From Lytechinus pictus (taxonomy: Eukaryota), in the NCBI RefSeq assembly GCF_037042905.1, contig NC_087245.1, forward strand, positions 806,001 to 870,000: 64,000 nt of DNA, written 5' to 3'. Both the position numbers and the translations under genes were made by a program. The notes beneath the pieces were generated by a model, which saw only the letters and a list, made by a program, of their open reading frames with translations, did no database searches and was not told where the DNA came from. Shown one piece after another: positions 4,514 to 47,711 of this stretch; position 1 is the first letter of the stretch, and the number at the start of each line of letters is the position of its first letter.

Positions 4514-4596
<83 letters not shown>

Positions 4597-4597
<1 letters not shown>

Positions 4598-5041
4598 CGC
4601 CTACCATTGTTCCCTTCATCCATTTCTTTCACACAATATTTAAATAAAAGAGTTGCCAAAGCTGTAGTACATGTATAACTTCACACATTTGTATACTTTC
4701 TCCCATACGTGTACTGTATCAAATCAATAGCTTTGATCCAGCTGAGGCATGGCGGCTTGTCATTGTTCAAAACCCACCTTCACCCGACAAAGGAAATTAT
4801 AATTGGTATGGTGTCGAAAATCTGTCTATCTGACGGTCAATTGGATCGGGGTCGCTCTAGCCACTAACCCGTCTCTGTGGTCTAGTGGTTAAGGCACCGG
4901 CGTTCAAAGCTGGGGGCCCGGGTTCGATTCCCGGCAGAGACATTTTTTCGGCATCACCAATTTTTCCAAAAAGGGTAGATAGCTCTGGGGAACCTTGATT
5001 TAAGCTACGCCTACCATTGTTCTCTTCATCCATTTCTTTCA

Positions 5042-5044
<3 letters not shown>
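4597..5044 (+). mobile_element. (TA)n-inserted element with 38-bp terminal direct repeats carrying a tRNA-like gene
   Basis: acgcctaccattgttc(c/t)cttcatccatttctttcacac at 4597-4634 and 5007-5044, flanked by TA repeats on both sides. Confidence 0.75.
4871..4942 (+). tRNA. tRNA-like gene with UCA anticodon (opal-suppressor-like; tRNA-Glu-like body)
   Basis: Acceptor GTCTCTG/CAGAGAC, D stem GTCT/AGGC, anticodon stem CCGGC/GCTGG with loop GTTCAAA, T arm CCGGG-TTCGATT-CCCGG, then TTTTTT at 4943-4948. Confidence 0.7.
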
Positions 5045-5097
<53 letters not shown>

Positions 5098-5942
5098 TTG
5101 TGAACACTCAGATTTGCTTGAATTTTATCCTCATGAGAGATTTCCGTTCACCCTGATGATTATCAAGATAAAGTAAATGCAAAAGATTGTATTACTGGGT
5201 ATAAAAATATCTTGTAGCAGATTTGTGTCTTATAATATTTTATATTGTGCTATGACAATGTGATTTTTGACATGCAGTTACTAGTTGAGCTTAACAGGTT
5301 GATTTGGAAGGGGGGAAATTGTATTAATCATTTTGGCTGACATAGTAAAGAAATTAAAAATTAGTACATGTTATCTTATTGAGCTTTCTTTTGTGGAGAG
5401 GAAATGATTAATAATAGTCAATCATTTGGAGAAACTTAGTATTCATTTTGGACTGAAAGTAGAGGGAGAGGGGGGATATCATATTGCTGCAGTATTAAAT
5501 GTTCATTCATTCAACCATATATCACGAGACTCAATGGTAACTCGAGTATAGGGATTATAGTTGGCTTTCGAGCCTCTGACTAAGCAACTTAAACTCATCA
5601 ATTAACAGTGTGTTAAGTGAATTAACCTTTCTGTGTAACAAGTTTAATCTAGTCTGTTGTCTACACAGGGGGTCGTTTCTATGGTAACCCCAAGTCTCTG
5701 TTGTGCTTCGTGCCACTGAGCATGCGCCGTTTGAATAATTAATCAAGTGTTTCAGTTGATGGGTTTTTTTAGAATGGAGTTAAGTTTAATTGCATGTAAA
5801 GCACTTTATCAATATTGCTTCCATAATATTCACGTGCTACACGGAAAATATGTCGATGACATAGCGCCATTGAAGATGATGAAATAACCATCCTCCCCCC
5901 CTTTTTTTTTTAATCTTTCGTTTGAGTTCATTCGTTACTCAC

Positions 5943-18110: not shown

Positions 18111-21100
18111 TATGGGTTTACTGACGGTAATTTGGTCTAATATCACTTGGTCTAATCATCATATGGGCTAACAACATTCGGGCCAAACCCACTTAGTCCA
18201 ATTTTCTTTTGGTCTAATGACCACTTGATCTAATAGCCATATGGTCTAATGACCACTTGGTCTAACAGCCCATTGGTCTAATAGCCACTTGGTCTAATGA
18301 TCACTTGGTCTAATGACCACTTGGTCTAATAGCCACTTGGTCTAATGCCTAGTTGGGCTAATCGTCACTTTGTCTAATTTTCATTTGGTCTAATTTCCAT
18401 TTCGTCTAATGTTTTTTATTGTCACTTGGTCTAATTGCATTAGGTCTAATACCAGTTGGTCTAATAGTCGGTTAATCTAATACTAGTTGGTCTAATCCTC
18501 ACTTGGTCTAATGTGCAGTTGGTCTAATATGCGGTTGGTCTAATGTGCAGTTGGTCTAATATGCAGTTGGTCTAATGTGGTCATTACACCAATTGGGTAT
18601 TAGACCAAGTGGAAATTAGACCAAACGGTCATTAGACTATGTGACAATTAGTCGAAATGAAAATTGGACCAAGTGGAAATTAGCCGAAGTGGAAATTAGA
18701 CCAAGTGGTGTTAGACTAACTGGAAATTAGACTAAATGGTTTTAGCCCAACTGCTGATTAGACGAAGTGGATATTACACGAAGTGGTCATTAGACCAAAT
18801 GAAAATTAGACCATATGGCTATTAGACCAACTGGTTATTAGACCAATTGCAGGGGCGGATCCAGCCTTCGCCAATAGGGGGGGGGGGCCCGGATTTTTTT
18901 TCAGCCATATTTTACCCGATCGGCCGCTCGAAGATGATTTTTGGTTTCATTGAAGGGGTAGTCCTATAAAAGTCACTTCTTAGCTTTATATGAATAAACA
19001 TTAATATATAATATCCTTATTTATATAATGCGAGCGCGAAGCGCGAGCTAATTTTTTTTTTGAAATCTTGTGTATTTTTTCCTAAAATCATGAACATTCT
19101 GGGCGATGTTTGCTATCCTGAAAAAGATGTGTATGCAAATGAATAACTACTACGAACGTGAAGCGCGAGCAGAAATGAATTGATGGAAAAGGTATATGTT
19201 AAAGATTGCTTGCAGTTAGCCACGAAGACGTTACATATTTTAAAAATCCAATAATGCGAGCGCAAAGCGCGAGATGAAATTTTTTGACATTTTTACCTAA
19301 GAAATAGAAATTCTAAGCACTTTTTGTAACTCAAACAGAATTGGTATATAACTAAACAGTTGATGCGAGCGCGAGATTTAGACCTACTAAACGAGACACT
19401 CTATTTACGTTTTGTGAATCATGAAAAGGATGAGTAAGTGGGGATCTTCCTTACATTAATAATGCGAGCGCAGAGCGCGAGCAGAAAATTTTTATTTACG
19501 TTTTTAACTCATTATCGAAAAGGTACCTGTTAAGGACTGCTATTGCACTTAGTCATGAAGACATTACATATTTCAACAATCAAATAATGCGAGCGCGAAC
19601 CGCGAGCTGAAAAAAAATCACATTTCTACATAAAGAATGTAAAATTTTAATCAATTTTTGTAATCGTGAACAGGATAAGTATATAACTAAACAATTTATT
19701 GATGCGAAGCGCGAGCGGGAAAAATTGAGATTTAGACCTAAAACGGGACACTCTATTCATGTTTTGTAAATCATGAAAAGAATGAGAAATTGGAAATCTT
19801 CCTACATTAATATTGCGAGCGCAAAGCGCGAGCCGAAATTTTTAATATACGTTTTGATCTAATAAAAAAATTATCTGTTAACGGCTGCTTGCAGTTTGCC
19901 CTGAAGACGTTATATATTTCAACAATCAAATAATGCGAGCGCGAAGCGCGATATGAAAATGTTGACATTTCTACCTGAAGAATGGAAATTTTAAGCACTT
20001 TTTGTAATCGTGAAAAGGATAAGTATGTAACTAAACAATCGATGCGAGCGCGAAGCGCTAGCGGAAAAAATCGAGATTTACACCTAAAAATGGGACACTC
20101 GATCTATTCATGTTTTGCAAATCATGAAAAGGATGAGTGATTGGAAATCTTCCTACGTTAATATTGCGAGCGTAAAGCGTGAGCAGAAAATTTTTGATGT
20201 TGTGATATGAAACTGGATAATGATTTAAACAGAGAACAACTTAGCTGTATATCTGAATAACATGCGCGCACGTGTTTCAGATTTAGACCTAGAATCTGAG
20301 TGTGCATTCTAAATACCTTTTTTATCATGAAAATCGATAAAGTGAGCGCAAAGCGCGAGCTTAAAATATTTGATATTCCGATCTGAAAAGGATCAATTTA
20401 AGCTCTGTATTTCAAGCACTTTGTAGGAAAATTGTTAGGTGGATATGGATCAAATTAAAAAAAGAGCTTATATGTTTCATTATTATTACTTTGAGTTTTG
20501 ACATAGGACCAGGACATTCCAAGAACATTATGTCATCATATGAAAATGATGACTATATCTTTTCATTTCTCTTCCTAAGCGCGAGATGAAACTTGTCGAT
20601 ATTCCATTATGAAAAAGGGACTTATTAATCTAATAAGCCTAATGTGAGAGCGCGAAATCTGTTAATATTATTGCCTGAAAACTGGACATTTAAAGCATTT
20701 TTGTATTTATGAATAAGATGCATGAGTTAATATATTTTCAACAATCAATGCGAACGCAAATCGCGAGCCAAAATTTTAATATTCAGACCATAAAACAAAA
20801 GATTTACAGAGCGCTTTTTAAAAATCAATTTGTAAATCATACAAAATAATGAAAGTTCGATTTCCAAGCTGAAATATGTTTTCTATGTTGACTTAAAATT
20901 TTGATATTTCAAGCTCCATATTGATATGTAAATCACCTAACAGGCAATGCGAGCGCGCAGCTCGAGCAAAAAAATTTCATAGTGACATAAAAGATTTTAA
21001 AAATTATTTTCCTAGTCTTCTCATCTTATTTTATTCACTAGTCTTCATCTAAATGTGTTTCCCCTTCTTTTTTCTCCTCTCTATTCCCTTCTTTTTCTTT

Positions 21101-21352
21101 TTTTTTCTTTCTTTCCCCTTTTTTCTTTTTTTTTTTGCTCCGCCGCGTGAATAGGGGGGGGGGGGGGGCCGGGCCCCTCGGCCCCCCCCCCCCTGGATCC
21201 GCCTATGCAATTGGATATTAGACCAAGTGGTCATTAGACCAATTGGATATTAGACGAACTGGTTGTAGACGAAATGAGTTTAGACTAAGTGAAGTTGGAC
21301 GAACTGATTAGTAGACCAAGTGGTATTAGACCATACGATAATTAACCCCGTA
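18111..21352. mobile_element. Foldback-type MITE built of TTGGTCTAA / TTAGACCAA repeats
   Basis: Left half has many ttggtctaa units, right half the inverse; ends tatgggttta.../...taaccccgta; interrupted by the element at 18851. Confidence 0.7.
18851..21206. mobile_element. Poly-G/poly-C MITE with GCGAGCGCGAAGCGCGAG internal repeats
   Basis: aggggcggatccag ... ctggatccgcctat TIRs, internal G/C runs, repeated gcgagcgcgaagcgcgag motif and a ~350-bp internal duplication. Confidence 0.75.
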
Positions 21353-25614: not shown

Positions 25615-25850
25615 TGTAGCGGTCGCGCCCCCAGCTTGACCACTAGGTTGATACCTGAAGCTAGAATATAAGGAATAAGTCACTAACCAGTATTTTCCTG
25701 GAGTGATGTCCTAGTTCCTGTCTATTCCGTGTGAGTTCAGCTTCAAATACGATGATCCAAGGGATCCAACGTCCTCCAGCGTCTAAAAGGGGTCCAGCGC
25801 CATCTCCCGGTGGAAGACCTATATGGGGGGTGGGGTGACTTACTACAACA
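25615..25850 (-). repeat. 3' LTR (236 bp)
   Basis: Identical by eye to 43971-44206; preceded on the minus strand by polypurine tract GAACGGGGGGGAC (25851-25863). Confidence 0.95.
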
Positions 25851-27286
25851 GTCCCCCCCGTTCTATAAAACTCGGTCCCTCGAGTTTCCAACCCAAATGG
25901 ACGCTATCCAAACCAGACACCAGGCAGAGGGAGGAAAAAATTTTCCACTCCCTAGGCACCCCAACCAGGAGACCTTATCTCCCGGCTGGGCATGAGTAAA
26001 TACAAGCCCATTTAAAAATTCCCTTTGGTCTTTTATGTACACAATGCTCCTTAAAATTTGGCAAAAAGTACTTATGCAGCATTGTTCTGTCCCAAGTCTG
26101 CATTCCCAAAATTAATTATAATTTGCTACCCGTAATCAGCCATAAACATATTCCGTTCTTTTATAAATAAAAACTCCAAAACTATCCAAAACACTTGGCA
26201 CAACTGTGCTAAAAACTTGTTCAACACTTTAAACTTTAAAAACCCGTAACATGAAAACGGTAAAAACCCATAATAACACCTAAAAACCTAGAGTTTTGAG
26301 GTTCTTTAAAAAACCCATACAAAACATATAGAACAATGGTATATATATATAAAAATATAAAACCCATACAAAAACCCATATCCCAGGAGGGTCCCCCCTT
26401 CCCAGAAAGCTCCACTTTCCCATAGCAGTGGGCTGCCGCTGGCCCTCCCCTGTCGAGGCACCATCTTACCCGGGCTGTGCAACACATAGCATTCCGGTTC
26501 GGTTGAGAGACTGGAGCACCAGTACCCAACCTAGGTCCCCCAGGTGCAGGAAGGGGGCGTCAGCGCTGCCATTATGCGAAAAGGGCCATTTAAAACACTC
26601 CCCTCCAAAGCGGACCATGAAGCATTTCCTACATGGCCTACATATACAAAAAGATAGACGAAAACATAGACAACGAACACAAAAGACACCAAGAGGAGGC
26701 GACCCAGCTGGTCTCCTCCTGTACAGAAAACGTGTAGGGTCCTAAACGCGCTAACCTAACCCCAAAAAATGCAAAGGGAATCGAAATCCCTTCGTGAAAA
26801 ATGGAGGACAGATCTCCTCCAGTCCCCTTTTTTTTCCTCACTACACCCCATAGAGTGCCAGATGGTTAATCCTAGCTCGCTCCATGAGGGTGAGAAACCT
26901 TATCTGCCGGGCCGAGGTGACAAGCCCTCACACCTCGCTAGTGAACCCAGGGTAGGATCCTTCTCCTGTTCCACCCGTACCGGGTCGATGGGCAGCTGCC
27001 CATCGGTAACGCCCACTGGCCTCACCCTGACCGACATGTACTGGACTGGCTCCACCTACACGTTGAACCATTAGCCCCAATAGTACGGCTGCTTGCCTGT
27101 ACTTTGGTAGAGGAACCGCGATCCAGGTGAACCCATATTTCAACAGGGAGCGATCCCGTCTCCCTTCCCTTCAATTTTTCAGTTTCCCCCAACACCTCAG
27201 AGCAGATTACCTTAAGGTGCCTATCAGATGGGTTCTGTTTTCCCAGCCCTGTAAACCGAACCGGGAACTAGGAGCAGTAAGCCATC

Positions 27287-28108
27287 CTAAGGGTTAAAGA
27301 TGAAATCCCCTAAACGTTGGTCTATAACGCCGGTGATCCGCTTGACTGCATTCGGAGGAACAATTACTTGCTTGTGCAAATGAACCCGGGCAATCTGCCG
27401 CCCAGGGTCATCACTATACCAAAGTGGAATCCTCTGACCTCCCAACTGCATATGCGGATCTAGGAGGTGAATCGCAGCCTTGCGCTTGCTGAGGAAATCT
27501 AATCCCAGGAGCATATGATCAGCTATAGGGGCTACATATACTTCCTCCGAGAACGTCTGGTTCCCAAGCTCTATGGAAAGGGGACCGACAATTGTCCCTC
27601 TCATCTTCATATCCCGTCCCGCTGCATGTAGGATCACTCCTCTCAGTTTAGGGGGCTGGGGGTCCAGTGACTGCAGGAGCCTATCCGAGATGATGGACAC
27701 CTCGGCTGCGGTATCGACAACTGCGCTTACTGGCTGCCCCCCTATAACAACTGAGACCTTGAGAGTAGAGCGCGACTCCAACCTACATACCACTACCTCT
27801 TCAATCTCGCTTGCACACCCAAGCCCTGTGAGAGCATCTGGAACTGATTCCAGAATGGCTTCACCCAGGTCTGATATTCGGGTGTTCGAGGGACCAACTG
27901 GATCCCCCGCCGCAGCCTCTACATAAGTAGCTATTCCGGTTACATTATTCCCTGGGACTATCAGGCGCTCCGACACGCCCTCTGTTATTCCTTCAGATGA
28001 GCCTACGGATGGCCCCTCTGAGCTGCTTGCTAGCTTGGAACCCTCTATTTGGCCTCTGGCGGTGGGGGCCGGTGGCTGGCCAGCTCCTCCGACCCGTTGG
28101 AGTTTTCC
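27287..28108 (-). CDS. Retropepsin (aspartic protease) in the -1 frame relative to gag; pol truncated
   Basis: VSAVVDTAAEVSII catalytic motif and MLLGLDFL; ORF overlaps the gag end; stop after ...RLGDFIFNP. Confidence 0.85.
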   Translation of the reverse strand, partial: GKLQRVGGAGQPPAPTARGQIEGSKLASSSEGPSVGSSEGITEGVSERLIVPGNNVTGIATYVEAAAGDPVGPSNTRISDLGEAILESVPDALTGLGCASEIEEVVVCRLESRSTLKVSVVIGGQPVSAVVDTAAEVSIISDRLLQSLDPQPPKLRGVILHAAGRDMKMRGTIVGPLSIELGNQTFSEEVYVAPIADHMLLGLDFLSKRKAAIHLLDPHMQLGGQRIPLWYSDDPGRQIARVHLHKQVIVPPNAVKRITGVIDQRLGDFIFNP

Positions 28109-29745
28109 TCCTCCTGGTCCCCTACAAAGGAAACTTGTACCTTGGCCCTGTTTTCCTGGACCGAAGGACAATTGTTCCTGTAGTGGCCAATCCCGCCGCA
28201 CTCATAGCACCGGTCCCGACCGGGTGACCTCCCGCGTTCACGCGCTGGTTGGGGCCTAGTCTGGATAGCCTCCAGGACCTTCTTGAGGTCCCGTTCCAAA
28301 CCACCCAGACGCTGCAGATCCCGCTCGATGTGGCCCAAGCGTTCATCGGTCTTGCGTTCTAGGTTCACCAACCTTTGCTCAAGGGCTGCATTGTTCCCTT
28401 GGGGTAGTTCCACCTTACGGACCTCCCCTTCATTAGCCTTAGACACTGCCTTGGGACGCCCGTACATTGCGCGGTGCACGTGTTGGTGCCACTCAATATA
28501 CTTAAGCGCCTCATTCACGGTAGATGGATTCCGCGTAAGCGCGTGGCACCCCGCCTCTCGGTTGAGGGCGCCCTGGCACAGGCGAAGGACCGCCTGTCTA
28601 TTCGGGTAGGACCCATTGACCCCTGGAAAAGCACGCGCTGCTAGCTGGAGCACCCGGTCTGCCCAGTCTGGCAGGGATTCAGTGGGTCCCTGCTTGGCTG
28701 CCACAAACTCCAGCTGAGCAGATTCAGAGAGCCCTTCCTCCCCGAACCTGTGCTGCAGCCGGGCCACTAGACCTGCATATGGCATATTTGGCTCTTGGTC
28801 CAAGACCATTAGCAAATAATCTTCAGCCTTCCCTTTCAGGCCCCAGTATAGCTGGCTTACGCGCTCCATTGCAGTCCAATTATGGTGATCAGCAAAGGCG
28901 GAGAACTTTCTGAAGAAAGCCCTCCAGTTACCCTTGCCGTTGAAAGTGAGGGACTTTGGCAGCGTGTAATATGGTAATCCACCACCAGTCCCCCTTCCTG
29001 AGGAACCACTAGAATTCGCAGGTGATGCAGCCGGGCTACTAAGCGGCGAAGATGAACTGTACTGGGCTGGGCGTGTCATACCCGCCCGCACATTCCTTGC
29101 GCTGTAATCTGGGGTAGGGGGTGGGGCCAAGGAGCCCCTTCCTTCACCTACCTTGGACCTCATGGCTACCGCTTGCTTGGTGGTGGGGTCATCGCCCCCA
29201 GACCATTCGCTTGAATCGCCACTCGCCTGCATAAATCTATTGACAGAGGCACCATTAGCCTCCTCGCCAACTAGATTCCTGAGCCTAAACCTAGGCTCTA
29301 CACCACTCCCCATATCTCCCCCTCTGGTGCTTGGGGGCTCATGCCCCCGCTCCTCCCGGAAGTGAGATGAGCTGGTGCCCCAGGACCCACTAGACTGGTT
29401 ACTTTGACTTGACCTAGGGGGCTGGTGTTGGTCATAGGGGTAAACACCCCTGGAACCTGCCACCCCATTCAGGTCAGACTCGCTACGGGTGCCCGCAGTG
29501 ATGCGCCCCCTAGGGGTAATAAAAATACTGCCCTCTACCCCCTGGGTGCCCCCCGAAAAGTCTACTCTTTGTGCTAGCTCCCTATTGCTGCATAGCGCTG
29601 GGCTGCTTTCGAAAAGCTCGGGGGTTATCTCCCCATGATCAAGTCTAATCCCCTGGATTATCCCTGCTAGAGCTGGACTTAGCCCTAGCAACCTAAACTC
29701 CTCAAAGGAGCACACATTAATGGGGATTTTCTCTTCCCCGTCCAT
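28045..29745 (-). CDS. gag: Gag polyprotein, 566 aa
   Basis: Capsid-like LPKSLTFNGKGNWRAFFRKF...KQGPTESLPDWADRV, coiled coil, CCHC knuckle CYECGGIGHYRNNC; intact ORF. Confidence 0.92.
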   Translation of the reverse strand: MDGEEKIPINVCSFEEFRLLGLSPALAGIIQGIRLDHGEITPELFESSPALCSNRELAQRVDFSGGTQGVEGSIFITPRGRITAGTRSESDLNGVAGSRGVYPYDQHQPPRSSQSNQSSGSWGTSSSHFREERGHEPPSTRGGDMGSGVEPRFRLRNLVGEEANGASVNRFMQASGDSSEWSGGDDPTTKQAVAMRSKVGEGRGSLAPPPTPDYSARNVRAGMTRPAQYSSSSPLSSPAASPANSSGSSGRGTGGGLPYYTLPKSLTFNGKGNWRAFFRKFSAFADHHNWTAMERVSQLYWGLKGKAEDYLLMVLDQEPNMPYAGLVARLQHRFGEEGLSESAQLEFVAAKQGPTESLPDWADRVLQLAARAFPGVNGSYPNRQAVLRLCQGALNREAGCHALTRNPSTVNEALKYIEWHQHVHRAMYGRPKAVSKANEGEVRKVELPQGNNAALEQRLVNLERKTDERLGHIERDLQRLGGLERDLKKVLEAIQTRPQPARERGRSPGRDRCYECGGIGHYRNNCPSVQENRAKVQVSFVGDQEEENSNGSEELASHRPPPPEAK

Positions 29746-29779
29746 GTTGTGCTTACCCTAATTGGTGTTATCCTAGCAA

Positions 29780-30540
29780 GGTTCAGTTAGGCCCAATACT
29801 GAGCCCAACCAAACCCCTGTTAAAATTATCCAAAAGTTATCCAAAAACTAGGTCTAAATGCAAACCCAATTTATTTATTAAATTCTTTCTAGTATTTTCT
29901 TTTAGCAATTAAAATTGCAAAAACCTGTAAAAAAGTCCAAAAGTATACCCTAATCAGTTTATGGTTAGGCCCAGTGATAAGCCCAACCAAAAAACCTACT
30001 AGAGTTATTCAAAAGCTATCCCAATAAATTAGGTCCAAGTGCAAACCCAAGTTATTTATTAAATTCTTCCTAGTATTTTCTTTTAGCAATTAGATTACAA
30101 AAAGATCCAAATGTATACCCCAATCAGTTTATGGTTAGGCACAATAATAAGCCCGACCAAAAACCTACTTAGATTTATCCAAAAGTGGTCCCAATAAATT
30201 CTTTTATTTTTTAGCAACTGGAATTATAAAACCGTCCAAAAATATACCTTTAACAGTCAATGGTTAGGCACAGTAATTAGCCCGACCAAAAAACCTGCTA
30301 AAGTTATCCAAAAAAGCTATCCCAAAAAATTAGGTCCAAATGCAGACCCAATTTATTTTATAACAATTCTTTTATTTTTAGCAACTAAAATTATAAAACC
30401 GGTAAAAGTCCAAAAATATACCTTTAACAGTCAATGGTTAGGCACAGCGATAAGCCCGACCAAAAACCTGCTAAAGTTATCCAAAAAAGCTATCCCAAAA
30501 AATTAGGTCCAAATGCAAACCCAATTTATGGTATAAAATT
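29780..30540. repeat. Tandem ~130-175-bp repeats (about 5 copies) in the retrotransposon leader
   Basis: Recurring ggttaggc(c/a)cagt..agccc(a/g)accaaaa..ttatccaaaa..aggtccaaatgcaaaccca near 29785, 29962, 30132, 30261, 30435. Confidence 0.8.
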
Positions 30541-32268
30541 CTAGCTTTTATTATTAATTAGATTAGTTTAGTCCGGTTGTGGCTAATAGTTTGCACTATC
30601 ACTGCCAAAAAGAATAATTGTAGCTCTAAAAATATTTATATTAACCTCTAACGTTAAGCCTAACTTGTCTTTTATTAATTTACCTAGGCTATTTATTTTA
30701 TTAATCCTCGAAGCTGGTTCTGTCCTCAATCACGCTAGTGACTAGTGCCCGCTCACACCACAGACAAATTACATGTACTTATTCACATACACAGTCACCC
30801 CACACTCTCTCAAAAATTTTTTTTTTTTTTTTCTTTTATTTATTTGGCAACGGACTCCCCGCTACAACGAGTGGGTGCCCTTACAAAAAATTCCTGTAGT
30901 ACTCTGTGATATGTACTGCAGGAAGTATCGCAGGAAAGTACTGCAGGAATTACGTGCACGTAATTTGGGACGGTACTACAGAAATGTACAACAGGAGTAC
31001 AACAGGTCCGTGTCCTGTGATACTTCCTGTGGTAATAACCGCATAAGTATGGCAGGAAGTATGACAGGACACGATCACCACAACCGCTACAACCGCTACA
31101 ACCACTACCACACTACTATTAGTACTACAGGACAGTATCACAGGATAGTATCACAGGATAGTATCACATGATAGTATGACAGGACAGTATGACAGGATAG
31201 TATGACAGGACAGTATGACAGGACAGTACTACAGGAATACCGCAGACCAGTATCACAGGGAAGTACTACAGAACAGTATCGCAGGACAGTACTACAGGAG
31301 TACCGCAGGCTTCTGGTACTGTGTCCTGTAGTACTGTCCTGTGATACTGGTCTGGTATTCCTGTAGTACTGTCCTGTGATACTGGTCTGGTATTCCTGTA
31401 GTACTGTCCTGTGATACTGGTCTGGTATTCCTGTAGTACTGTCCTGTGATACTGGTCTCGTATTCCTGTAGTACTGTCCTGTGATACTGGTCTGGTATTC
31501 CTGTAGTACTGTCCTGTGATACTATCCTGTGGTGATAAATAGTATCACAGGACAGTATGACAGGACAGTACTTTAGGAATTCCGCAGACCAGTATCACAG
31601 GAAAGTACTACAGAACAGTACTACAGGACAGTACTGCAGGAATACCAAGAGACCTTACCGCAGGACAATTCCTGCAGTACTGTCCTGTGGTATTCCTGTG
31701 ATACTGATCTTTGATATCTTCTGTGGCATTATTGGTCTCATCCTGCAGCCTTCTTGTGATACTTTACTGTGGTAAACCTGCAGGGGTATTCTTGTTGATT
31801 TCCTGTGACAATCCTATGGTATTGTCCTGTAGTAGTCTGTGCGATTTTCTCACGACACCGTCCTGCACTGGTTTGTTAGGCGTAGTAGTTTGTAAGAATT
31901 TCCTGTGATCCAGCACAACAACTTTGACATCTTGACTAATGAAAAGAGGCGTGAAAAAACCCACAAATTTGCAAAGACGTTAAAAGCATATTCACATACC
32001 TTTATTATGTATGAGCTGTACTATGCACAGTATAGAACATCTTTGATATCATAAATGACTGCTAGAATAATGCAGTAACATTTCATCTTTAGGATAAGAC
32101 ATGTACAAAGATTTATATCCATGAACATTGAGATGCCACATGAACTACTTTCACTATTCATACATTGCTGCCATTTTGAGATCACATAAAGAAAGCTAGA
32201 TTCGACCCAGAATCCTTCCCTCTAACACAACAATAAGCGATTATTATTAATACCTTGGTCACATTCCT

Positions 32269-32424
32269 TGACCGGTTGCCTTACGGCGAGACAAAATCAG
32301 CAGTTTTAGGTATTCCTGTACAAACCACCCACGTGTAGCTGGTAGTAGCTGGTACAAGGATGATTAAGACTGTTAATTTTGACTCGACGTAAGGCCACGA
32401 GCCGGCGAATGTAACCAAGGCTTA
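32269..32424. mobile_element. Small Harbinger-like MITE
   Basis: ccttggtcacattc ... gaatgtaaccaagg TIRs with internal ccttacg/cgtaagg symmetry. Confidence 0.55.
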
Positions 32425-33829
32425 ACCAGTATTATGGTTGCAAAAAAAACTGTAATAGCTGAGCAATTGCATTTTCCCCTTCTTGTCAACACCCGATTGG
32501 CTTAATACTAAAAGCAGAACATCCTTTACTCAACCATGTTATGAAACAATGGATAACCACTTCTGCATGTACAGATAATGCATGGTGCACATACAGTAAG
32601 GGATGAAATTATGATGTGTTGATCACCAGTATAAACTTAAAGTACATGAACGTAATCATAATCACTTCATTTTGCTCAGAATTCACTTAAGTCCATAAAT
32701 ACTGAAAGATATTTTTGAATGAATTTCACATGATTTAGAACGTTCACCATAGGTTAGAAAAAATATGAACATAAGATTACTTTGCCAAAACGTAGATCAA
32801 ATCTATTGAGACATTAACCTTTTTGACATTGAATAGGCATATCATTTTACACAGTCTTCTTGTCTAAGAATTGCTCCAACTACGTATTGAAGGGTTATAT
32901 ATGAATGTAAGCATGAGCCCATCATAAACACGAAATTGCGGCATGTAATTTGATTTGCTACATGTCATAATTGATAACTAAATGACGTTCAATACTTGAT
33001 GTTGCTACATAAAATAATTAAGGTCATGTGGCAATGTGAATTCATACCTACTCGAGTCATTTAGTAATTTCAATTAGTATATGACCTAATTAATTATGAC
33101 ATATAGCTCAAAATTGACTTGAATAATTATGACCAATTTGATTGACCTCAATTATTTGAAGTAGCAACATCAATTATTTAACATAAGCACTCTCAATCGA
33201 GGTGGAGTAACTCTTCTTTAGGTCATGTTACTATTCGAATTGGAACATGTCATTGTTTAGGTCATGCAGCAATTCAAATTACTTGCTCAAGTAAACAATT
33301 ACAATTGTAATATCACGCAAAATGAATTAGCTGTACATGACATAATTCTGTTCTTTGATGGGCTTATGCTTCCATATATTAAGTAAATGGCTTTAATTCT
33401 TAATGATTATCCAAAAATTCATATACATAAAATAAACCAATATGAAGAGCATCATATCCAAAGTGATCACCAGTTCACCCAATGTTACAGTACAAAAATA
33501 AAAAGCTGATTTTCTTATGTACTTTCACACATGTATGTTATACATGTGCACTGTATGTCACTTGACCCTGGCAGACAATAGAATTGACAAGCAGTGAGTC
33601 CTACATGTACATGTAGCTGCCTGGTTTGCATACTTTAATGTTATATGAATTTCAATCATGGCCATGTGCTGTTTATACACTAAATGGAGGGATCTTGTCA
33701 TAATGTTATGTCAATTAAAAACTGAATAAAATCCCAATTATCCTGAATAGCTAGACTAGCCCCCTTGCAATGGACATTGTAATCTTGTTTTCTTTTACCT
33801 TTCATTATTTTTGAAAATTTTCATACAAC

Positions 33830-34756
33830 TAGGGCTGGGACTAAAACCCGGGTACCCGAGTAGAAAAATCAATACCCGATACCCGAAAATTGCTCACCAG
33901 TATAATGTACATGTATTTGATTTGTATTGCGTAGTGTAAGACATGATTGTAACTCATTACAAAAGTACACAAGCCTCATTTTGAATTTCACCAATTACCC
34001 TCTAAATATCCATAAATATACAAGTTTTCAAGTGATGATGATGTGACCGAGATCGTTCAATCATCGCCATGTTTCTTTTGCAGCGCAGTGACGTCATCCA
34101 GCCACTGCGACGCAAACCAATTTATGAATGAAAATATAGTAAGCATGCGCATTGCAAGCCTCAGCCCCACGCAGTATTACGTCAAAACAAGTCTGCAATA
34201 CTCTGTCACCTCATACCAAAATCGACCTACGAAGCACCAGCCAATCACGTTCTTGTTACCATTTTTAGTTCATCATAAACCGAAAATGGGAACACGATCG
34301 TGATTGGCTGGCGCATTTGACGCTCTGAAACCCGGAAATCAATTGACTTTGTTCACGTAGCGATACAAACTCACGAACACGATGTAATATCGATGCTACT
34401 TCGTAAGATTTTGACGGAAAAGCAAGAATAAAAATTTGCTTACCTGTGCAGTATCGGTGAGAAAACCTTTTATAATTCATATGATATATAGGAAAGTGGA
34501 ATTCTAGGTCGATTTTGGTACGAGGTGACAGAGTATTGAAACTTGTTTCGATGGAATACTGCGTGGGGCACGGGAGGCTTGCAATGCGCATGCTTACTAT
34601 ATTTTCATTCATAAATTGGCTTGCATCGCATTGGCTTGATGACGTCACCTATGGGGTTTTTCCACCAGTCATATTTCAAGTGACATGATTTTCAGGTACC
34701 CACCCGAAAATTACCACGGGTACCCGAAGAGAAAAAACCCGAAAGTCCCAGGCCTA
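33830..34756. mobile_element. hAT-like MITE
   Basis: tagggctgggact / agtcccaggccta TIRs, perfect 8-bp TSD catacaac, tacccg subterminal repeats, internal ~140-bp inverted repeat (34088-34225 vs 34507-34648). Confidence 0.85.
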
Positions 34757-36210
34757 CATACAACTCTTTGTTTTTTTTTTATACTTTATCAAAGCTTTTA
34801 TGATTATAAATGTAATTAAATAATTTGACTTGATAAATGTATATTACTGGTATACTAATTGTGAATTTTTAGCAAGAAACAGTATTTGTGTTGGATTAAT
34901 ACATAAAAATGTTGCGAAATTTCGGAACAGCGTACCCAGGCATCACAAATTTGGTCTCAAAAGATGTGCAAGACTTGAAAGTAAAAAGGCAGCTAATGCA
35001 GCCTCCCAGTTATTAACCCTTAGTTAAATTGGACCAATTTGACCCCCCCCCCTTCCAAAAATTTTGCGACCATGCTGTCGCACAATTTTTTTAAAACATG
35101 CCTCTTTCTAGTCTTGTGCATCTTTTGAGACCAATCTTGTGTCACCCGGTACGTGGTTCTGTAATAACGTGACATTATGTAAGTACATGTCATACCAAAA
35201 ATTGCTCAAAAACGTGATTTTGTGTACAAAGTCAATGCAATAGAGGAAAAAGTATGATTTTGTATTCTAATTACGCATAAATTAGTATTATCACTTACTA
35301 ACAATTTGCGTGAAATAATTTACAATTTAATTTTGTAAATTATGCCCTAGACAACCCATGTGCCAATGTTAGACGCGATTGTGCGGTCAAGATCTCAAGG
35401 AAGGGGGGGGGGGCCCTGGAAACCCCCCCTCCCCCCGCCATATCAACTCCCAAAATACCCTGGCTTTAGTTGACTTTCTGGCTCCTCTTGAGTAGTCACC
35501 ATTCATTGGACAGCTTGTTTTTATCCAAGTCTGTATAGCACGAGGCAGCTTAATCTGTAGAAAAAAAAACACATACCATTACGATAACATGAACAACATA
35601 AAAATACAAGAAATAAGGTGTTTTGCCCCCATCTAGATCTCTTTTCACAAGTACATATCTATCGGATAATGAGGTCCTTGCGGCTATCTCTCTTAGCATA
35701 TTCTTGCTTATAAAAGCAAACTAAGCCGAAGAGTGACAAACAATTTATAATGCAAACAAATTGTCATAAGCACATATTGAAACTCTTTAATAAAACAATG
35801 AAGAATAAATCTACATCTTCTAACAAGGATTACACTGTATGCCACTGCATGAATACAATCTGCTTAATTTTGTAATTATAATATCTACTGAAGTGAATGC
35901 CTATATAATCACCTTTTATGAACTCCAACCGTGTCTTGTACAAGAACATGGCCTTTTCTGTGTACACCTGTAGTATCTTTCCCACATAATGCTGGACTTG
36001 CTGCTCGATCATCCAGAGATCCCTCTTTGAATCTTTAATGAAATGAAATGAATTTGAGTGACATAGTAAAATTTTATTTGCAGGTTAATACAAATACATG
36101 ATGTAATAAAAATACATGATAAAACTTCTTCATTTCCATATTTCAGTGTTACAATTCAGGTGCAAAGAGTCATATTCTTTAATAATATTCAACATAAAAT
36201 CAATAGAAAC

Positions 36211-37197
36211 TAGTGCTGTTGTCGATAGGCCTCATATCGACATTGATGTCGACATACGAAGGATTTTCAAAATTCCGACATGTCGACATGCACGCACCCA
36301 CATCGACATGTAAACATAAAATAAAAAGGGGTCTAGCCTACAATCACGAGTGTTAAGATTAGCTGAAAAGTTAGAAGCATTTATCCACAGTAATTGGCGC
36401 GATTAAAAGGTTTATTCAGCTTAGCAGCGCATTAAATGAAAAAAGAATATCTGCGAGCTGTGCGGCAGTAGAAATACGTCAGTGCAGGGCCGGCCTGCCC
36501 GATCGAGCCGCCCTCGATATCCCGTTATAGCGAGAGTAGCATTCACCGTACCCATCCACGGAAATATGTACCCATCGCGCGCTATTCACCGTGCTTGATA
36601 ATACGTTGCTCCTCAATGCATTACTTTTCACATAAACGTGAGCAGCAGCGAACACGTGTTTTTGTCAAAGTTGTGACTGCCGCAATTGAGCGCTTACTTC
36701 ATATCACGAAGTCACAGAAAACTTCCCTTCATTCGTTTGGAGATCGTTGCACGGATCGCCGCGGAAGTGATACTGAAATTATCGGTCGATTTTCATTACT
36801 TTTCATTGTCAAATTGAGGAGCTTGCGTTTGCAGCAATGATCACTGTTGTAATTGGTGATTCTCAAATTGGCTACGAGTGTTATTGAGCAATGCTTTCGA
36901 AACCGGATCCTGGTACAAAAACTTGATTCTCCAGAAAAAAAATGTGGATTAAATCGGTGATTTTGGAAGCTCAATTCCCGAACTGAGCCTGTATTATATA
37001 GATCTAGTGTGGGGATATCACTCGTGTCAAGGTGAATATATTTGATTGAGAGTGTTGTTCCACGATCGAATGCTTTTTTTTTATGTTAGGGAGCCCAGGC
37101 TAAATTACGGTCCCTTTTTCATGTCGACATTGTCGATGTCGGGATTAATTTTTAAGCGACATGTCGACATGGATTTTTGTTCCCGACAACAGCACTA
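36211..37197. mobile_element. hAT-like MITE
   Basis: tagtgctgttgtcg / cgacaacagcacta TIRs, degenerate 8-bp TSD atagaaac/atgaaaac, atgtcgacat subterminal repeats. Confidence 0.75.
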
Positions 37198-37237
37198 ATG
37201 AAAACATTAAAAGTAGAGGAGCATTTTAACCTTACTC

Positions 37238-37785
37238 CCCGGGGGGGCCACTTACATTGACGACTGGATACCATGCGCGACCAAAAAAACACGTAAAAAG
37301 GATGTCCTTTCCACGATAGGGCACGTTACGTACGTAACGTGATAAGGGTGTCAAAAACACAAAAATAATGAAAAGAGGGTGTCTATTTCGCTAGGAAAAT
37401 TACGTGTTTAGGGTCGAATTTGCGGGAATGATAAAACAAAATTAAAATGTTTTATAAAGGATGTCCATTTTGCCCCAACACTTCGTGTTTAGAGTCCGAT
37501 TTGCACGAGGTGTAGAAGGTGGGGTCGTACTAAACCAAATAAGGTAAAGCCGACGACCAAAGGACCCGTAACAATAAAACATTCCTGTACTTATTTAGGG
37601 GTTCATTTCAGGGAATATTTGCCAAGAGTATCGTTTTATTTCCAATTGTTAAGGGTAGGGTTTCACACGCCAATACTTGTTAAGGGGTGCCTTTTCAGAA
37701 TATGGAAATTACGTGTTTAGGGTGCTTTTCGAGACCCCATGGTCGCGCATGGTATCCACTCGTGAATGGAAGTGGCCCCCCCGGG
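37238..37785. mobile_element. MITE with CCCGGGGGGG termini
   Basis: cccgggggggccactt..ggataccatgcgcgacca / tggtcgcgcatggtatcc..aagtggcccccccggg; 8-bp TSD ccttactc. Confidence 0.85.
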
Positions 37786-40700
37786 CCTTACTCACAGTCT
37801 GTTATTGTCGCTAAAGTCTTTACAATAAGAAGATTGGGCACTTTGCCGACATCGCGTAATGCTTTGCATCGATTTACATGTATAATAGTCTTTGTGCCTA
37901 GTCTTTTCTATGTAGTGTCTTTAATATGTAGATAAAACATGCGTCCTTTAGCTAGTTAGACGAACAATTTTGGAAATTAAAGACGGATCCATATTTTATA
38001 AACCGGAAGAGAAATTAGTGCTTAAATGAAGCTATTTGAGGGATATTGATGATATTTAGGGTGAATTGACTTCACATCTTTTCGTAAGTTTGTCATGTTC
38101 ATAGAAGGCCGGACTTGATTTTATAGAAACCTCTTTTAAATTTGTGGGATTGCCTACCTCGAGTGAAGTTTGTGCAGGCTCCACTCCACTTCACTATTGC
38201 TACACTACGCTCCACCTACCCAAACTTTGAGACCGTGAACTGGATCTGTCGATCTGATATTCCGAGTGACAAAAAGTGGGATCTTATGGGGGGGGGGGGA
38301 TATCAAATTCATGCAACATCACGCTCTTTAAAAAAATTAAAACTAATATTCTTCCTGCACACAAAGTTTCAGTTCTTCTCCATGCCTCTATCCGTCTCAA
38401 AATTGATGATTTAGAGCCAACATGAAGTTTCTCACATAGATGGCGGCGTAAACATCGGGCAAGTCTCTTCCGTCTAATCATGATATTTTTCGCATTTTTT
38501 GGAATGAATTTATTCTTCAAAAATAACGACGAGAGCGTAGAAATGTTGGAAATTAAGTTTTATCCCATGTACATGATTTAGGTCTAACGTTAGGCTAGAT
38601 CTTTTAGAAGGAAAGTAGAAATCTCGGGGCCGGGGGTGAAAGTTTCAAGTTTTGGCTTCCTCTGTGTGGGTATATGAGAAAGGATCCCTGGCTTCATATG
38701 AGAGTGACCTTACGAAGTTACGTTAGTAAATGATTTTCACTCTCTAGAAGCCGCCTGGCTAGGCCTACAGCCATTCCCGATCACGATATTTTGAAAAGTG
38801 GTGGATATTATTGACTTCAAATGTGACTGAGTCTGAGAGACTTGTCATGACATTTGGGAACAAATATTGGTGATGAGGTATGCTGGTATTAATCGGCCGG
38901 TGCGAAACTGCATTAGCGCCCACCCCTGACCTGGCTACAATCATGACAATACAAACATCCTCACCGCCGCCATCAATATACTACTAACTTAGCCAGCCGT
39001 TGGCCGTCCCCGGCCGCGCACACCGCAGATCAGCCCCCACCCGATAAGCGATCGGGAACAACGGCAGTGCAGTGGCCGTACGGTAATGATTAAAAAGTCG
39101 AAGAAATTTAAGTGCTTGCCGCGCCAAACTACGAAAAATGGATCTAACTTACTGTTTAGCCTGTTGTGTGAATGTCTTAAGAAGTCGTTGTCCGAATCTG
39201 ATCCATATTCTGTTAGTTTTTGTTGAAATATTGACGGCCTTCTTCATCAAGCTTCGGGTTCAGCTGAGCAGTTACGAACGTTTTTTTTCAAATGGCGGAA
39301 CCGGAAACACGTATACGGTACAGTCCGTGCGTTTGTACGTTTGTACGGGGAGCTCGGAGGGGGGGGGGGGGGTCTTACTTTTTACTTGGAAACCAGACAA
39401 TTTGACTATTTTCGCCATCATTTATATATCATATTATTAACGTAAAGGAATTGAATAAAGTAAAATTCAAATATTTATTTCTTCTTCCTTTCTTTTTCTT
39501 TTCTATGTCTTTTAATTTTTTTCTTTCTCTTTATTCTTTTTTTTTAATATAAGGATAGGATTTAAAAACATGTCTCACAATTTTACTGAAAATATGTTAT
39601 ATAGGCCTACTAGTATGCAAGTAGGATGACAAAGAAAGCAATGAGGAAAATCACAGCTCCAATCCTATGTATTTTTAATTTTATTTCTTTTCAAAAACAC
39701 ACATTTTATCCTTTCTTGCGATCGAAGGAAAGATCCCTTTATAAGGTTCAAGTAGTAAAAGAAAATAATCTTAGATCAAGTGCCGGCAGGGTATTTTGAT
39801 AAGGGGTGGAGGAGCAAGACAAGCAAATATAAAGATACCATTTTGAAGCGAAACATAAGAAAAGATAATAACTTTGCCAACGAGGTAAAAAATAATATGA
39901 TATCGGTTGTGACACTTTAAGGATGGAAAATAGTTTGAAAATATATAGATACAAACTTCATACAAATTAGAAAAAAAGAAGCAAAATAAACTGCCATCAT
40001 ATGTGAACAGAGATACAAGATTGTTCTTGCAATTAAAAAACATATTTACAAACTATATATAGCTTCGCATCATAAAAATAGATTGAAAATATCCAAATTT
40101 ATTTGATTTAAAAAGAAATAGATATAAACCAGCCTGGCTAACATATTGCAAGGTGGCAAAGATATAAACCGGGGATATAAAGCAAAAAATAGGCCTTAAA
40201 ATGGAAATTAAATATCCTATTTTTAGTTTATCCTATTCCACCTGTAAAAAATATTGTGAATAGGAGAACAAATATTGAAGTAATTTTATTTATAATAATA
40301 TATTTGTAAGAAAATAGGTCCTTTTTACTAAAAAAAAATAAATAAAAAAATAGATGGGAAACTTGGAAAAATGTATTTTCTCGCAATAAAAACTTTAAGG
40401 GGCCAGAATCGCATTAAAACTTGGTTATGAAACGTGTAAAACAAAATCTTAGATAGCATTTAAACTGAGATTTATTTTTTAATCAACATTCAACGCTGAA
40501 CTTTCTTATGTTAATTGTTTATCAATATTTTGTGAAAACAGATAGTGTGCACATCGTCATGAATATTCATTTGGTGGGCTGATGATGTGACATTCCCATT
40601 TTTCTTTTTTAATGTTAGATATGAAATTATGATTATCTATTTTTTCAATACATGTGTAAATAATGTGTCCCCATTGTAAAGTTGCTGCATTAAATAACTA

Positions 40701-42229
40701 ATGCGGTTAATTAGTCGTCATTCCAATTGTTTAAGTTCTTGGTAGAAATATGTTGAATAAATCTAATTTCATATATTGTACAAAAGAACATGGGATATGA
40801 CATCATCAGCCCACCTAATGAATATTCATGAGACATGCCTAAATAAAACTGTTTCATGGGAATATTGCAAATCCTTAAAATTCAACTTAACTTCGTTATT
40901 TGTCATCCGATTTTGAATAAATTTTAAGCATTTTGTTTTGTGAATTTTACTCTATTTATTGATTATCTCTAGCGTTGACCTCCCCTTCAATTATTTTCTT
41001 GTATTGTTAGAAAGAGATGGATGAAGTAGAATAATACGTTCATGCTTATATTTTTATTCATTACAATATCTCTTTGAAATTCAACCCGGCTTCCTCACAA
41101 CCATTAAGCTCTAAGAGTGTTAGGTGTGTCCTGTATATTTCAACACGTACCCTTTTAAATATAGTCATTTTTTTATTATTCATCCTGTTTTTTATGAAAA
41201 ATAAGTGGCGAACAAACAAAACAAAAATGATAATTGAAATTTAAAAGAGCGCATGAAAAAGAAATAACCCTGAAAACGAACAATAGTCCTCAAAATATAA
41301 GTTGCCCATTTTGGGGTCAATAATTTTTCGCATTTTTCAGTTCGCGCTTTGCTCCTAGTTTTGATCTAGTACGTATAGTACCCTTTCTCGTAGAAATAGA
41401 AGCTATCAAACTTAAAACCTCTGAGTCTCAGTAGGCATAACCCCCCCCCCCCCTCGCTGATATAGACCTACACAATGGGACAGGGTGAAATATAATTTTG
41501 AAATAGGGCCTATATGTCACAATCTAGCTATCACAAAATTAAATTTTCATATAAAAAATTGTACTTTTTAAAATGAATGGTGCCCTTTTAAGCCATATGG
41601 CCTTCTAAAAATATAAGACTCAATACGCTACTGACCTCTCCCGAAACTGAAAAAAAAGATAAATCCCTCACTGGAAATAAAAAAATTAGTCTGTGGTACA
41701 AACAGGGCTTCCATACAAGTACTGAAGGAAACTAATTTTTTCATGTACTGTACCACAGAAAATACACCAGTAGCGTCTGTGATACAGTTTCAGTCATATT
41801 TCTGGGGTGGCTGCATGAGAAGTACCGCAGGAAATTTTGAAAGTATAGCACTGGGGTTGCCATAGAATTTTAGAAGTGCCTATATTGAGTCCTGCAGGAA
41901 ATTTCAAAATTTTCATTTACCACAGAAGTATCACAGGGTTTTCATAGAAGTGTCTTTAATAGGATCGAGTACTGCAGGAAATTTCAAAATGTTCATGTAC
42001 CACAGAAGTATCACAGGGTTTCCATAGAAGTGCTTAGTAATAGGAGTACTGCAGGAAATTTAAAAAATGTTCATATACAACAGAAGTATCGCAGGGTTGT
42101 CATAGAAGTACTGCAGGATATTTTAGAATTTTCATGTACAACAGAAGTACGACATAACTATCACAGAGTGATATTGTATACAGTTATGTACAACAGAAGT
42201 ATTACACAGGTACGACAGAGTACCATTAA

Positions 42230-42800
42230 GGTATTGCATGAAATTTTCATATTTTTATGTACCACAGAAGTAGAACTATCACAGAGTGATACCACAGGAG
42301 TCCTGTAGTAATTCCTTATACAGTTTTGTACAACAGAAGTATCACACAGGTACGACAGAGTACCATTAAGGTATTGCATGAAATTTTCATATTTTTATGT
42401 ACCACAGAAGTATGACAGAACTATCACAGAGTGATACCACAGAAGTCCTGTTGTAATTCTATATACAGTTTTGTACAACAGCAGTATCACACAGGTACGA
42501 CAGAGTACCATTAAGGTATTGCATGAAATTTTCATATTTTCCTGTACCACAGAAGTATGACAGAACTATCACAGAGTGATACCACAGAAGTCCTGTTGTA
42601 GTTCTATATACAGTTTTGTACAACAGAAGTATCACACAGGTACGACAGAGTACCATTAAGGTATTGCAGGAAATTTTCATATTTTCCTGTACCACAGAAG
42701 TATGACAGAACTATCACAGAGTGATACCACAGAAGTCCTGTGGTAATTCTGAGGTACCGTCGTGTATGACAGAAGTATCACACAGGTACAACAGAGTACC
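42230..42800. repeat. ~119-bp tandem subterminal repeats of the CACTA-like element
   Basis: Near-identical units gtattgcatgaaattttcat...cacaggtacgacagagtaccattaag repeated 4-5 times. Confidence 0.85.
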
Positions 42801-43956
42801 ACTAAAGTACTGCAGGAATTTTTTGTAAGGGTGGGTCCACACGCAACACAACACTACACACTGGCACCAAAAACCAACCTATTAGGTATGCAATACACAA
42901 CCAATGGTCGTGCACAGTTGCACTGGATCTAACGTCAAACCCGGAAATGATCGGGCGGTCTAACTGGTTAGATCTCGATAATTACCGTGAATTCTACCCA
43001 GCTTCGAGTACAAAACGTTCCCCCAAAATTTGGACAAAACACCCTAAAACACCACACAAAATTCAAAATATCCGAAATAGGCAGGCGAGAGAGGATTGGG
43101 ATAATGCCCTACCTTTGTTGGTCAGTCTGGCCTCCCGTCCTACTCGCCCAAATAATCGCCGTTGTTTACCCGTATACGTGCGATGGATTGGTCCGGCCTG
43201 ACGTCAGTTCGGATCTCAAACTAGACCCAAACGTTGAGCCGACGATGTAAAACAAGATGGCGCCGGTCGGTGGCAGAGAGAACCAATAATATCTCTCCGC
43301 CAATAGATCGCCGTGAAATCTTGGATCGGGCCGCGCGCTTTTACCTAGCCGGAACACACACACTCTTACGCACCTCTCACCCCAACAAAAATAGTTCACT
43401 CACAAATCACTCGCAAAACGACACAAAAATCATCCAAACACCCAAAATCACAAGCAAATCACACAATCACACCAACGTGAAACACAGTCCACAACTAAAA
43501 ACGGATATTAAAGCACAAAACTAAAACAAACTCACAACACAACAACACGTGTGTTCTCCCCCCCTTTCTGGAAATTTCCGTCACGGGACCGGAACTACCA
43601 TCAGTCCCCGCGACGAAAACCTTACCAAAAAAGACAGGGGACGATTGCCTAAATATGTCCCAAATCAAGATTTAACCTCTCAATTCAGGACAATCGCAAA
43701 CATGAAACAAGGGACAATATTCATAGAATATACGCAATACGACAAGGCTCTGAATCTAGCCTTATCAACTGTAATTAGCCCAATCTAAAACTGATTTCTC
43801 GTACTCGAGCGGCGACCATTTCCCCCCACGCAGCGGGGCATAGGGATTTGCTCGTCCGATGCGCAATAGGGGGCCGTTAGCTCGCCGCGAGACAATTATA
43901 CCCCAATTAATTTCAATAATTTGGCCTAAAATGCCCACAAAAGCAGGCACAGTCAG

Positions 43957-43969
43957 GCTCGCAGCGCCA
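43957..43969 (-). promoter_or_regulatory. Primer-binding site (probably tRNA-Ser)
   Basis: TGGCGCTGCGAGC 1 nt inside the 5' LTR; complementary to a ...GCUCGCAGCGCCA tRNA end. Confidence 0.8.
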
Positions 43970-43970
43970 C

Positions 43971-44206
43971 TGTAGCGGTCGCGCCCCCAGCTTGACCACT
44001 AGGTTGATACCTGAAGCTAGAATATAAGGAATAAGTCACTAACCAGTATTTTCCTGGAGTGATGTCCTAGTTCCTGTCTATTCCGTGTGAGTTCAGCTTC
44101 AAATACGATGATCCAAGGGATCCAACGTCCTCCAGCGTCTAAAAGGGGTCCAGCGCCATCTCCCGGTGGAAGACCTATATGGGGGGTGGGGTGACTTACT
44201 ACAACA
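43971..44206 (-). repeat. 5' LTR (236 bp)
   Basis: tgtagcgg...ctacaaca, identical by eye to 25615-25850. Confidence 0.95.
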
Positions 44207-46626: not shown

Positions 46627-47711
46627 GGCCGCGCGCGTATGAGTCGCCGATTGTACCAATATTATATAGAACAATTATTTGTTATATAATCATTATTTAT
46701 TAAATAATAACTATTATTTATATATAATTTACATTTTATTTGTAAATAACTACTATTATATAAAATAACGTTTCTAATTATTTATATATAATTCCAAGTA
46801 ATACTTCATTATTTGTAAATAATAATAGTTCGACATTCCATTATTTATAAATAATGATTATTTGTTTTTCATTATTTATAAATAATGATTATTTGTTTTT
46901 CATTATTTACAAATAATGATTATTTGTTTTCATTATTTATAAATAATGATTATTTGTTTTTTATTATTTATAAATAATTATTTTCGTTTTTCATTATTTA
47001 TAAATAATGACACTACATACTTCATTATTCATAAATAATTGCAATTCGTTTTTCCACTATTTATAAATAAGTTTTCTATTATTTATAAATAATAATTATT
47101 TATTAACAATGCCAGTGCACATTTCTTTATTTATAAATAATTTGTTGAGTTTTCCATTATTTATAAATAATGATTATTTGTTAAATAATGAATACGTCTA
47201 CTTCATTATTTATAAATAATGAAAAACGAAAATCATTATTTATAAATAATAAAAAACAAATAATCATCATTTATAAATAATGAAAAACAAATAATCATTA
47301 TTTATAAATAATGAAAAACAAATAATCATTATTTGTAAATAATGAAAAACAAATAATCATTATTTGTAAATAATGAAAAACAAATAATCATTACTTGTAA
47401 ATAATGAAAAACAAATCATCATTATTTATAAATAATGAAAAACAAATAATCATTATTTATAAATAATGAAAAACAAATAATCATTATTTATAAATAATGG
47501 AATGTCGAACTATTATTATTTACAAATAATGAAGTATTACTTGGAATTATTTATAAATAATTAGAAACGTTATTTTATATAATAGTAGTTATTTACAAAT
47601 AAAATGTAAATTATATATAAATAATAGTTATTATTTGATAAATAATGATTATATAACAAATAATTGTTCTATATAATATTGGTACAATCGGCGTCTCATA
47701 CGCGCGCGGCC
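46627..47711. repeat. ~1.1-kb AT-rich palindrome / foldback element
   Basis: ggccgcgcgcgtatgag(t/a)cgccgattgtaccaatattatatag... arms inverted over several hundred bp; internal 29-bp tandem cattatttataaataatgattatttgtttt. Confidence 0.9.

Follow-up and report, generated by a model that had tools for sequence, protein, structure and literature searches.

The Gag protein of a Ty3/gypsy retrotransposon of the sea urchin Lytechinus pictus begins with a ComEA-type helix-hairpin-helix (HhH, HHH_3) domain, which profile comparison and structural modelling confirm for residues 5-64. With confidence that is about evenly balanced, we propose that in this branch the conserved domain, held outside the capsid on a flexible linker of 190 residues, serves in protein docking rather than in DNA binding. 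The element lies in a window of 64,000 nucleotides (contig NC_087245.1, positions 806,001 to 870,000), to which the coordinates in Table 1 refer.

The Gag open reading frame (566 aa) extends on the minus strand from a Met codon at 29745 to the end of the stop codon at 28045 and lies in a GC-rich island within an animal genome that is otherwise AT-rich; the N-terminal peptide quoted in the initial annotation is found at this Met. The product is a Ty3/gypsy Gag, in which a folded N-terminal domain, a linker, the capsid, a long helix and a CCHC knuckle follow one another, and an 87%-identical member of the family is named "uncharacterised protein" of L. pictus by NCBI. In Foldseek the capsid matches PNMA2 (E 8.7e-6), dArc1 (E 7.8e-4) and Ty3 (E 0.03), with Arc also matched, and in Pfam it matches PNMA (E 0.001). 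Ty3/gypsy membership is seen in the capsid fold and CCHC knuckle of Gag and in the TG...CA LTRs, the polypurine tract and the short (4-bp) target-site duplications. The Ser/Gly-rich linker that had been noticed between the N-terminus and the capsid is borne out by the model, in which residues 67-258 have pLDDT <50 and are flanked by the folded N-terminal domain (blocks of pLDDT 86-90) and the capsid. The domain itself had been placed at 29610..29745, a span that covers residues 1-45 and stops short of its end at residue 64 (29554).

Table 1. Features of the HhH-Gag element in the window.
Feature	Coordinates	Strand	Basis
HHH_3/ComEA-type helix-hairpin-helix domain, Gag residues 1-64 (fold 5-64)	29554..29745	-	profiles, model, alignment
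Disordered Ser/Gly-rich linker, residues 65-258	28972..29553	-	pLDDT<50; dN/dS 0.25-0.44, indels among copies
Ty3/PNMA/Arc-type capsid domain, residues about 263-430	28456..28959	-	Foldseek, PNMA match
Long helix, likely coiled coil, residues 452-496	28258..28392	-	structure model
CCHC zinc knuckle (nucleocapsid)	28162..28212	-	zf-CCHC E 0.00085; zf-CCHC_6 at cut-off
Candidate -1 frameshift heptamer GGAAAAC	28102..28108	-	inferred; GGGAAAC at the aligned place in related Gags
Protease ORF, 304 aa, stops soon after the aspartyl protease	27287..28201	-	gag-asp_proteas E 1.4e-10
5' LTR, 236 bp	43971..44206	-	0/236 differences from the 3' LTR
5' leader, first part	42832..43970	-	LTR-element comparison
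Unrelated 11,954-bp insertion nested in the leader	30878..42831	.	terminal inverted repeats from CCCTTAC, 2-bp duplication
5' leader, second part, tandem copies of a 130-175-bp unit	29746..30877	-	repeat analysis
About 100-bp pol remnant between two internal deletions (about 1.7 and 4.1 kb)	26931..27033	-	comparison with full-length L113
3' LTR, 236 bp, TG...CA, polypurine tract just before	25615..25850	-	LTR comparison

Taken alone, the window Gag sequence gives no HhH match in Pfam or NCBIfam at E<=10, reaches no match at the gathering score of HHH_3 and finds no match in the PDB by sequence. A six-frame HHH_3 search of the genome yields 61 matches, from all of which the window family is absent; among the best 30 of these 61, 24 are the N-terminal ends of related Gags and six lie in other genes. 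Relatives do exceed the HHH_3 cut-off of 27 bits (L070, 33.8; L069, 30.2; P0154, 28.1 bits), and P0154, an unnamed protein that is the closest relative outside the genome (50% identical over 64 aa), bridges the gap to HHH_3. The Pfam check suggested in the initial annotation is negative for the window sequence itself and positive for relatives. Seventeen Gag N-termini align across 64 residues with Cys12 and Gly21 invariant, and ten of them match HHH_3 at E<=0.05. A profile of 14 other Gag N-termini, from which the window family was left out, scores the window segment at 44.3 bits, and a profile of eight canonical Gags scores it at 32.9 bits; none of 2000 shuffled sequences scores as high (shuffle maxima of 7.0 and 8.4 bits), and no other stretch of Gag comes near this score. 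Against the PDB, the 17-row profile ranks EEPD1 (5e-12) and ComEA (5e-8 and 6e-7) first, and all seven matches of a 7-row profile restricted to eroded and divergent members are HhH proteins (best E 0.0034).

The structural model, for which the alignment included canonical members, agrees with this assignment. It has a pLDDT of 82, with helices at residues 14-19, 24-37, 42-47, 49-52 and 55-60, and shows two helix-hairpin-helix units in the ComEA arrangement. ComEA ranks first in Foldseek, at a modest score (E 1.1, TM 0.58), and also in VIA (8dss, Z 6.9, rmsd 2.7 over 64 aa), followed by Tex (6.4) and 2duy (5.4); Z values below 8 are common among small helical domains, and it is the ranking that is consistent. 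In an atlas search, the top feature matches are all HHH_3, at 0.89 or less, which is taken as a lead only; an atlas query with the whole Gag showed no HhH-Gag cluster, and a region search with the L066 domain gave no match.

Seventeen copies in the genome have an open, full-length Gag (86-100% identity). Comparison of four pairs among them gives the domain a dN/dS of 0.07-0.11, close to the capsid value of 0.08-0.15 and below the 0.25-0.44 of the linker, which indicates purifying selection on the domain as strong as that on the capsid. As autonomous ancestors may have accumulated much of the divergence, dN/dS cannot be read as selection within deleted copies. Three further pairs of the eroded branch give 0.08-0.13 for the domain, one near saturation; one canonical pair gives 0.43 at low divergence, and two pairs are saturated. 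Some pairs of gag genes of L001-L017 differ along their length, with a dS of about 0.4-0.7 in the 5' portion that falls almost to 0 in the 3' portion, and these genes are likely mosaics produced by template switching between subfamilies. It is hardly credible that the N-terminal segment resembles an HhH domain by chance or persists as a decaying relic. The missing direct Pfam or PDB match and the loss of the domain in one lineage would fit such an origin, but the shuffle control, the domain dN/dS of about 0.1 at a dS of 0.4-0.7 and the absence of domain indels among the 17 copies largely refute it.

In a tree of the domain, 21 Gag domains fall on one side of a branch with support of 100/100, opposite 28 other HhH units (three host and 25 other; 67 columns, rough bootstrap). 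An eroded group of ten rows is nested inside the Gag domains (96/85) and is recovered, with nine rows and an SH-aLRT of 90, in a capsid tree built without the HhH columns, from which P0006, P0007 and P0154 were dropped. A grouping of the window family with the canonical L066/L069 was rejected by the capsid tree (p-AU 0.0017). Together, the two phylogenies show a single origin of the HhH domain and its inheritance with the capsid. As for a donor, none of the three host and 25 other HhH units groups with the Gag domains.

The domain marks a Ty3/gypsy clade with members in sea urchin, sea star and crayfish; in the full-length members of this clade, the integrase bears a PHD finger and ORF3 is a TatD nuclease. 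Outside this genome, the HhH-Gag layout is present in the sea star Patiria miniata (an N-terminal fragment), in the crayfish Procambarus clarkii, whose record carries precomputed PF12836 and PF03732, and in several unnamed ENA proteins; the pairing of HHH_3 with a Gag domain is hence already visible in automatic annotation. This range is a lower bound, because the representative search was dominated by multi-repeat HhH proteins and a single N-terminal match was seen in eight of the best 150 rows. In one gag-only lineage (L097-L101 and L104), the HhH profile scores 0 bits in all six loci and a different N-terminus is present instead. This lineage groups with the HhH-bearing L062 (95/89, in a tree without outgroup), which suggests that the domain was lost there; the domain is thus dispensable for some Gags of the clade.

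The element is young, and its copy in the window is a non-autonomous gag and protease derivative, produced by internal deletion and flanked by identical LTRs. Its 5' LTR is followed by a TGG-starting sequence that resembles a primer-binding site, and the target-site duplication is GTAA. Identity with Troyka was rejected, as CG-type termini are expected for those elements (PMC12440569, available text) and those found are TG...CA. Relative to L113, a full-length member of the same LTR family in which the order PR-RT-RH-IN is present, two internal deletions took the reverse transcriptase, RNase H, integrase-PHD and almost the whole TatD ORF3. Twelve of the 17 copies, including that in the window, share this pattern, four show another and one is full-length; in 12 of 16 fetched copies, the LTR pair is identical across the aligned part. 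The protease frame is -1 relative to Gag, and the heptamer at the Gag tail is likely a -1 frameshift site. The tail motif E-G-N is encoded by GGGAAAC in five of 11 Gags, with similar heptamers in three more. The insertion nested in the leader has long subterminal tandem repeats and no ORF of 150 aa, and we take it to resemble a non-autonomous CACTA/EnSpm-like DNA transposon; the LTR element that hosts it still has identical LTRs. Foldback or minisatellite elements with inverted arrays, at 18130-21350, 4150-5130 and 46630-47710, bear no relation to the HhH-Gag.

Two full-length copies encode PR-RT-RH-IN-PHD with one break each, in addition to an 894-aa frame that ends in TatD, and the three-part layout of HhH-Gag, integrase-PHD and TatD ORF3 recurs in four further families of the L. 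pictus genome. The ORF3 start codon immediately follows a pyrimidine-rich tract and CAG (L113:5236-7917, L066:7968-9290), and in one contig set the depth changes stepwise at this start and a loose end lies there, consistent with a spliced ORF3 message. RNA reads are too few to bear on expression: a sample of about 6% of three RNA runs gave 4, 0 and 3 on the element, and the full-length copy received 8 and 12. In another lineage (L058-L061 and L063-L065), the HhH-Gag is followed by an ORF of 260-313 aa, which had no Pfam match in the two that were scanned; none of the seven loci examined gave a pol or TatD match.

The DNA binding of the window-branch domain is doubtful, because neither the second glycine nor the basic residues required by ComEA for DNA remain in its hairpin. 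According to the available text of the two studies, K62/K63 are required for DNA binding by V. cholerae ComEA, in which R71 is thought to be structural and G60A (second hairpin Gly to Ala) is harmless (PMC3879209), and the K166A variant of G. stearothermophilus ComEA does not bind DNA (PMC9747964). The first hairpin of the window domain (G21-L22-S23) reads G-L-S-P-A-L in place of G-I-G-x-x-K, with a one-residue deletion; no Lys or Arg is present in G+3..G+9, the second hairpin lacks GhG, and residues 1-64 carry a net charge of -6. Neither the GhG hairpin nor the DNA-contact lysine of ComEA-type domains is therefore present. In the eroded branch, nine of ten rows lack the second Gly and are also free of Lys/Arg across G+3..G+9 (L091 and L093 scored by eye), with core residues retained, including the structural Arg34 of the window domain, which matches V. 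cholerae R71. The same state occurs in ten of 298 non-Gag units, of which only 21% have Lys/Arg at G+5 and 19% are as acidic as -5; this set of uncharacterised units was retrieved with the Gag profile and is hence biased. The case against DNA binding is also limited by the harmless G60A and by the part that backbone amides play when HhH motifs hold DNA. Of the initial proposal of a DNA-binding module fused to Gag, the fold, the fusion and the conservation hold, and the DNA binding is what the eroded hairpin and the acidity call into question.

A distinct, if lesser, possibility is that the domain still binds DNA or RNA non-specifically, with weak binding by each copy adding up to strong binding by the hundreds in a particle, and tethers either the particle or the integration complex to chromatin. 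The fold and the first Gly are retained, ten of the 11 rows of the canonical branch keep the second Gly and ten keep a basic residue, the integrase of full-length relatives bears a PHD finger, and the second Gly position tolerates small residues (PMC3879209, available text). Such a tether has to be reconciled with a first-hairpin helix devoid of basic residues, a second hairpin without GhG, the net charge of -6 and the absence of Lys at the K63 position (G+5) from all 21 Gag domains, a Lys that the Thermus ComEA-like 2duy and EEPD1 also lack.

The position of the domain in the particle is predicted by analogy. In PNMA2 and dArc, residues N-terminal to the capsid form outer spikes (bioRxiv 10.1101/2023.02.09.527862 and 10.1101/697193, available text), and the HhH domain is predicted to sit outside likewise. 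As sequence N-terminal to a Ty3-type capsid is mostly outward, cDNA binding becomes the weaker of the two roles first suggested, the other being chromatin tethering. We consider it improbable that the domain acts inside the particle, either as a reverse transcriptase accessory that binds the genome or newly made cDNA or by giving the TatD nuclease processivity, as in HhH nuclease fusions. HhH-Gag, integrase-PHD and TatD do occur together in five of five elements with the ORF3 end covered, and the linker is long enough for inward threading, as the available text suggests for some dArc N-termini (bioRxiv 10.1101/697193). However, the CCHC knuckle already serves RNA binding, and the domain is still constrained in the L058-L061 and L063-L065 lineage, with no pol or TatD match. 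An HhH-TatD fusion by splicing is unsupported: 13 Gags show no conserved in-frame splice donor after the domain, and in the contig that enters ORF3 from elsewhere the loose letters match nothing in gag.

Under the docking reading, Gag, and Gag-Pol produced by -1 frameshifting, would assemble into a virus-like particle in which the HhH domain would occupy the place of the matrix or spike sequences of related Gags, and many copies on long tethers would provide avidity. The ancestral form, with GhG and a basic residue, probably bound nucleic acid without sequence preference and may have helped to keep the particle on chromatin, beside the integrase-PHD. The eroded form would keep docking through protein contacts, with itself, with Pol or ORF3 products or with a host factor. 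The window copy, immobile alone, would depend for reverse transcriptase and integrase on full-length relatives that share its LTRs. One point against docking from the outside is that the protease could cut the HhH domain off.

PsbU, GspK and Tex/Spt6, which turn up among the profile and structural matches, contain HhH-fold domains whose main known role is not DNA binding. They resemble the Gag domain in having the fold with degenerate hairpins and offer a precedent for its reuse as a protein-contact module, with no sign of closer kinship. With the ComEA domain (HHH_3, PF12836; 8dss, 2duy; PMC3879209 and PMC9747964, available text) and the human EEPD1 units (9yi2), the Gag domain shares the fold of two helix pairs with a loop between them, the pattern I-N-x-x-x-x-E, the Gly hairpin and A-x-x-I-x-x-x-R-x-x-x-G. 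Unlike them, the Gag form is fused to a capsid protein, has an invariant Cys12, a D-F end and a second hairpin without GhG, and in the window branch has an eroded first hairpin in an acidic domain. The capsid fold, the CCHC knuckle, the TG...CA LTRs and, in full-length relatives, the order PR-RT-RH-IN are those of Ty3/gypsy elements (Metaviridae), whereas the folded N-terminal HhH domain, the integrase that ends in a PHD finger and the TatD nuclease as ORF3 in place of env are not.

Other LTR elements have captured domains, namely the chromodomain of chromoviruses (PMC12440569), the MBD of CopiaMBD (PMC6673714) and the non-env nuclease or esterase ORF3s of bdelloid elements (PMC5408684). As here, a captured module is kept by selection and proposed to steer integration or host contact; the available text of these three papers names no HhH domain on Gag. 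Full-text literature searches, which took in the available text of PMC2836005, brought up neither an HhH-Gag nor a gypsy clade with PHD and TatD, although subscription papers, Repbase reports and supplements may describe one. With regard to the named gypsy clades (Mag, CsRN1, Cigr-1 and MolGy1-16), the available main text of PMC6238403 mentions neither PHD nor TatD. In the one paper from these searches that combines helix-hairpin-helix, gag and retrotransposon, the term denotes a helical part of Cer1 CERV and not of Gag (PMC10309623, available text).

In its widest form the proposal is tentative and, on balance, rather doubtful: an old and so far undescribed gypsy clade, present in marine and aquatic invertebrates, would have captured three modules (HhH on Gag, PHD on the integrase and TatD as ORF3), with the ComEA-type domain on the capsid exterior as a matrix substitute that began as a DNA grip, holding the whole particle on chromatin or on outside DNA, and later became a protein-docking spike in one branch. 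The role of the region that precedes the capsid is largely open in gypsy elements without matrix or env, and here this region is a folded, selected and recognisable domain. The presence of intact and eroded hairpins in one genome allows a comparison of whether a retrotransposon capsid itself holds DNA and of how such a module changes jobs. Additionally, the HhH domain provides a marker for a clade whose Gags are listed in public databases as uncharacterised host proteins.
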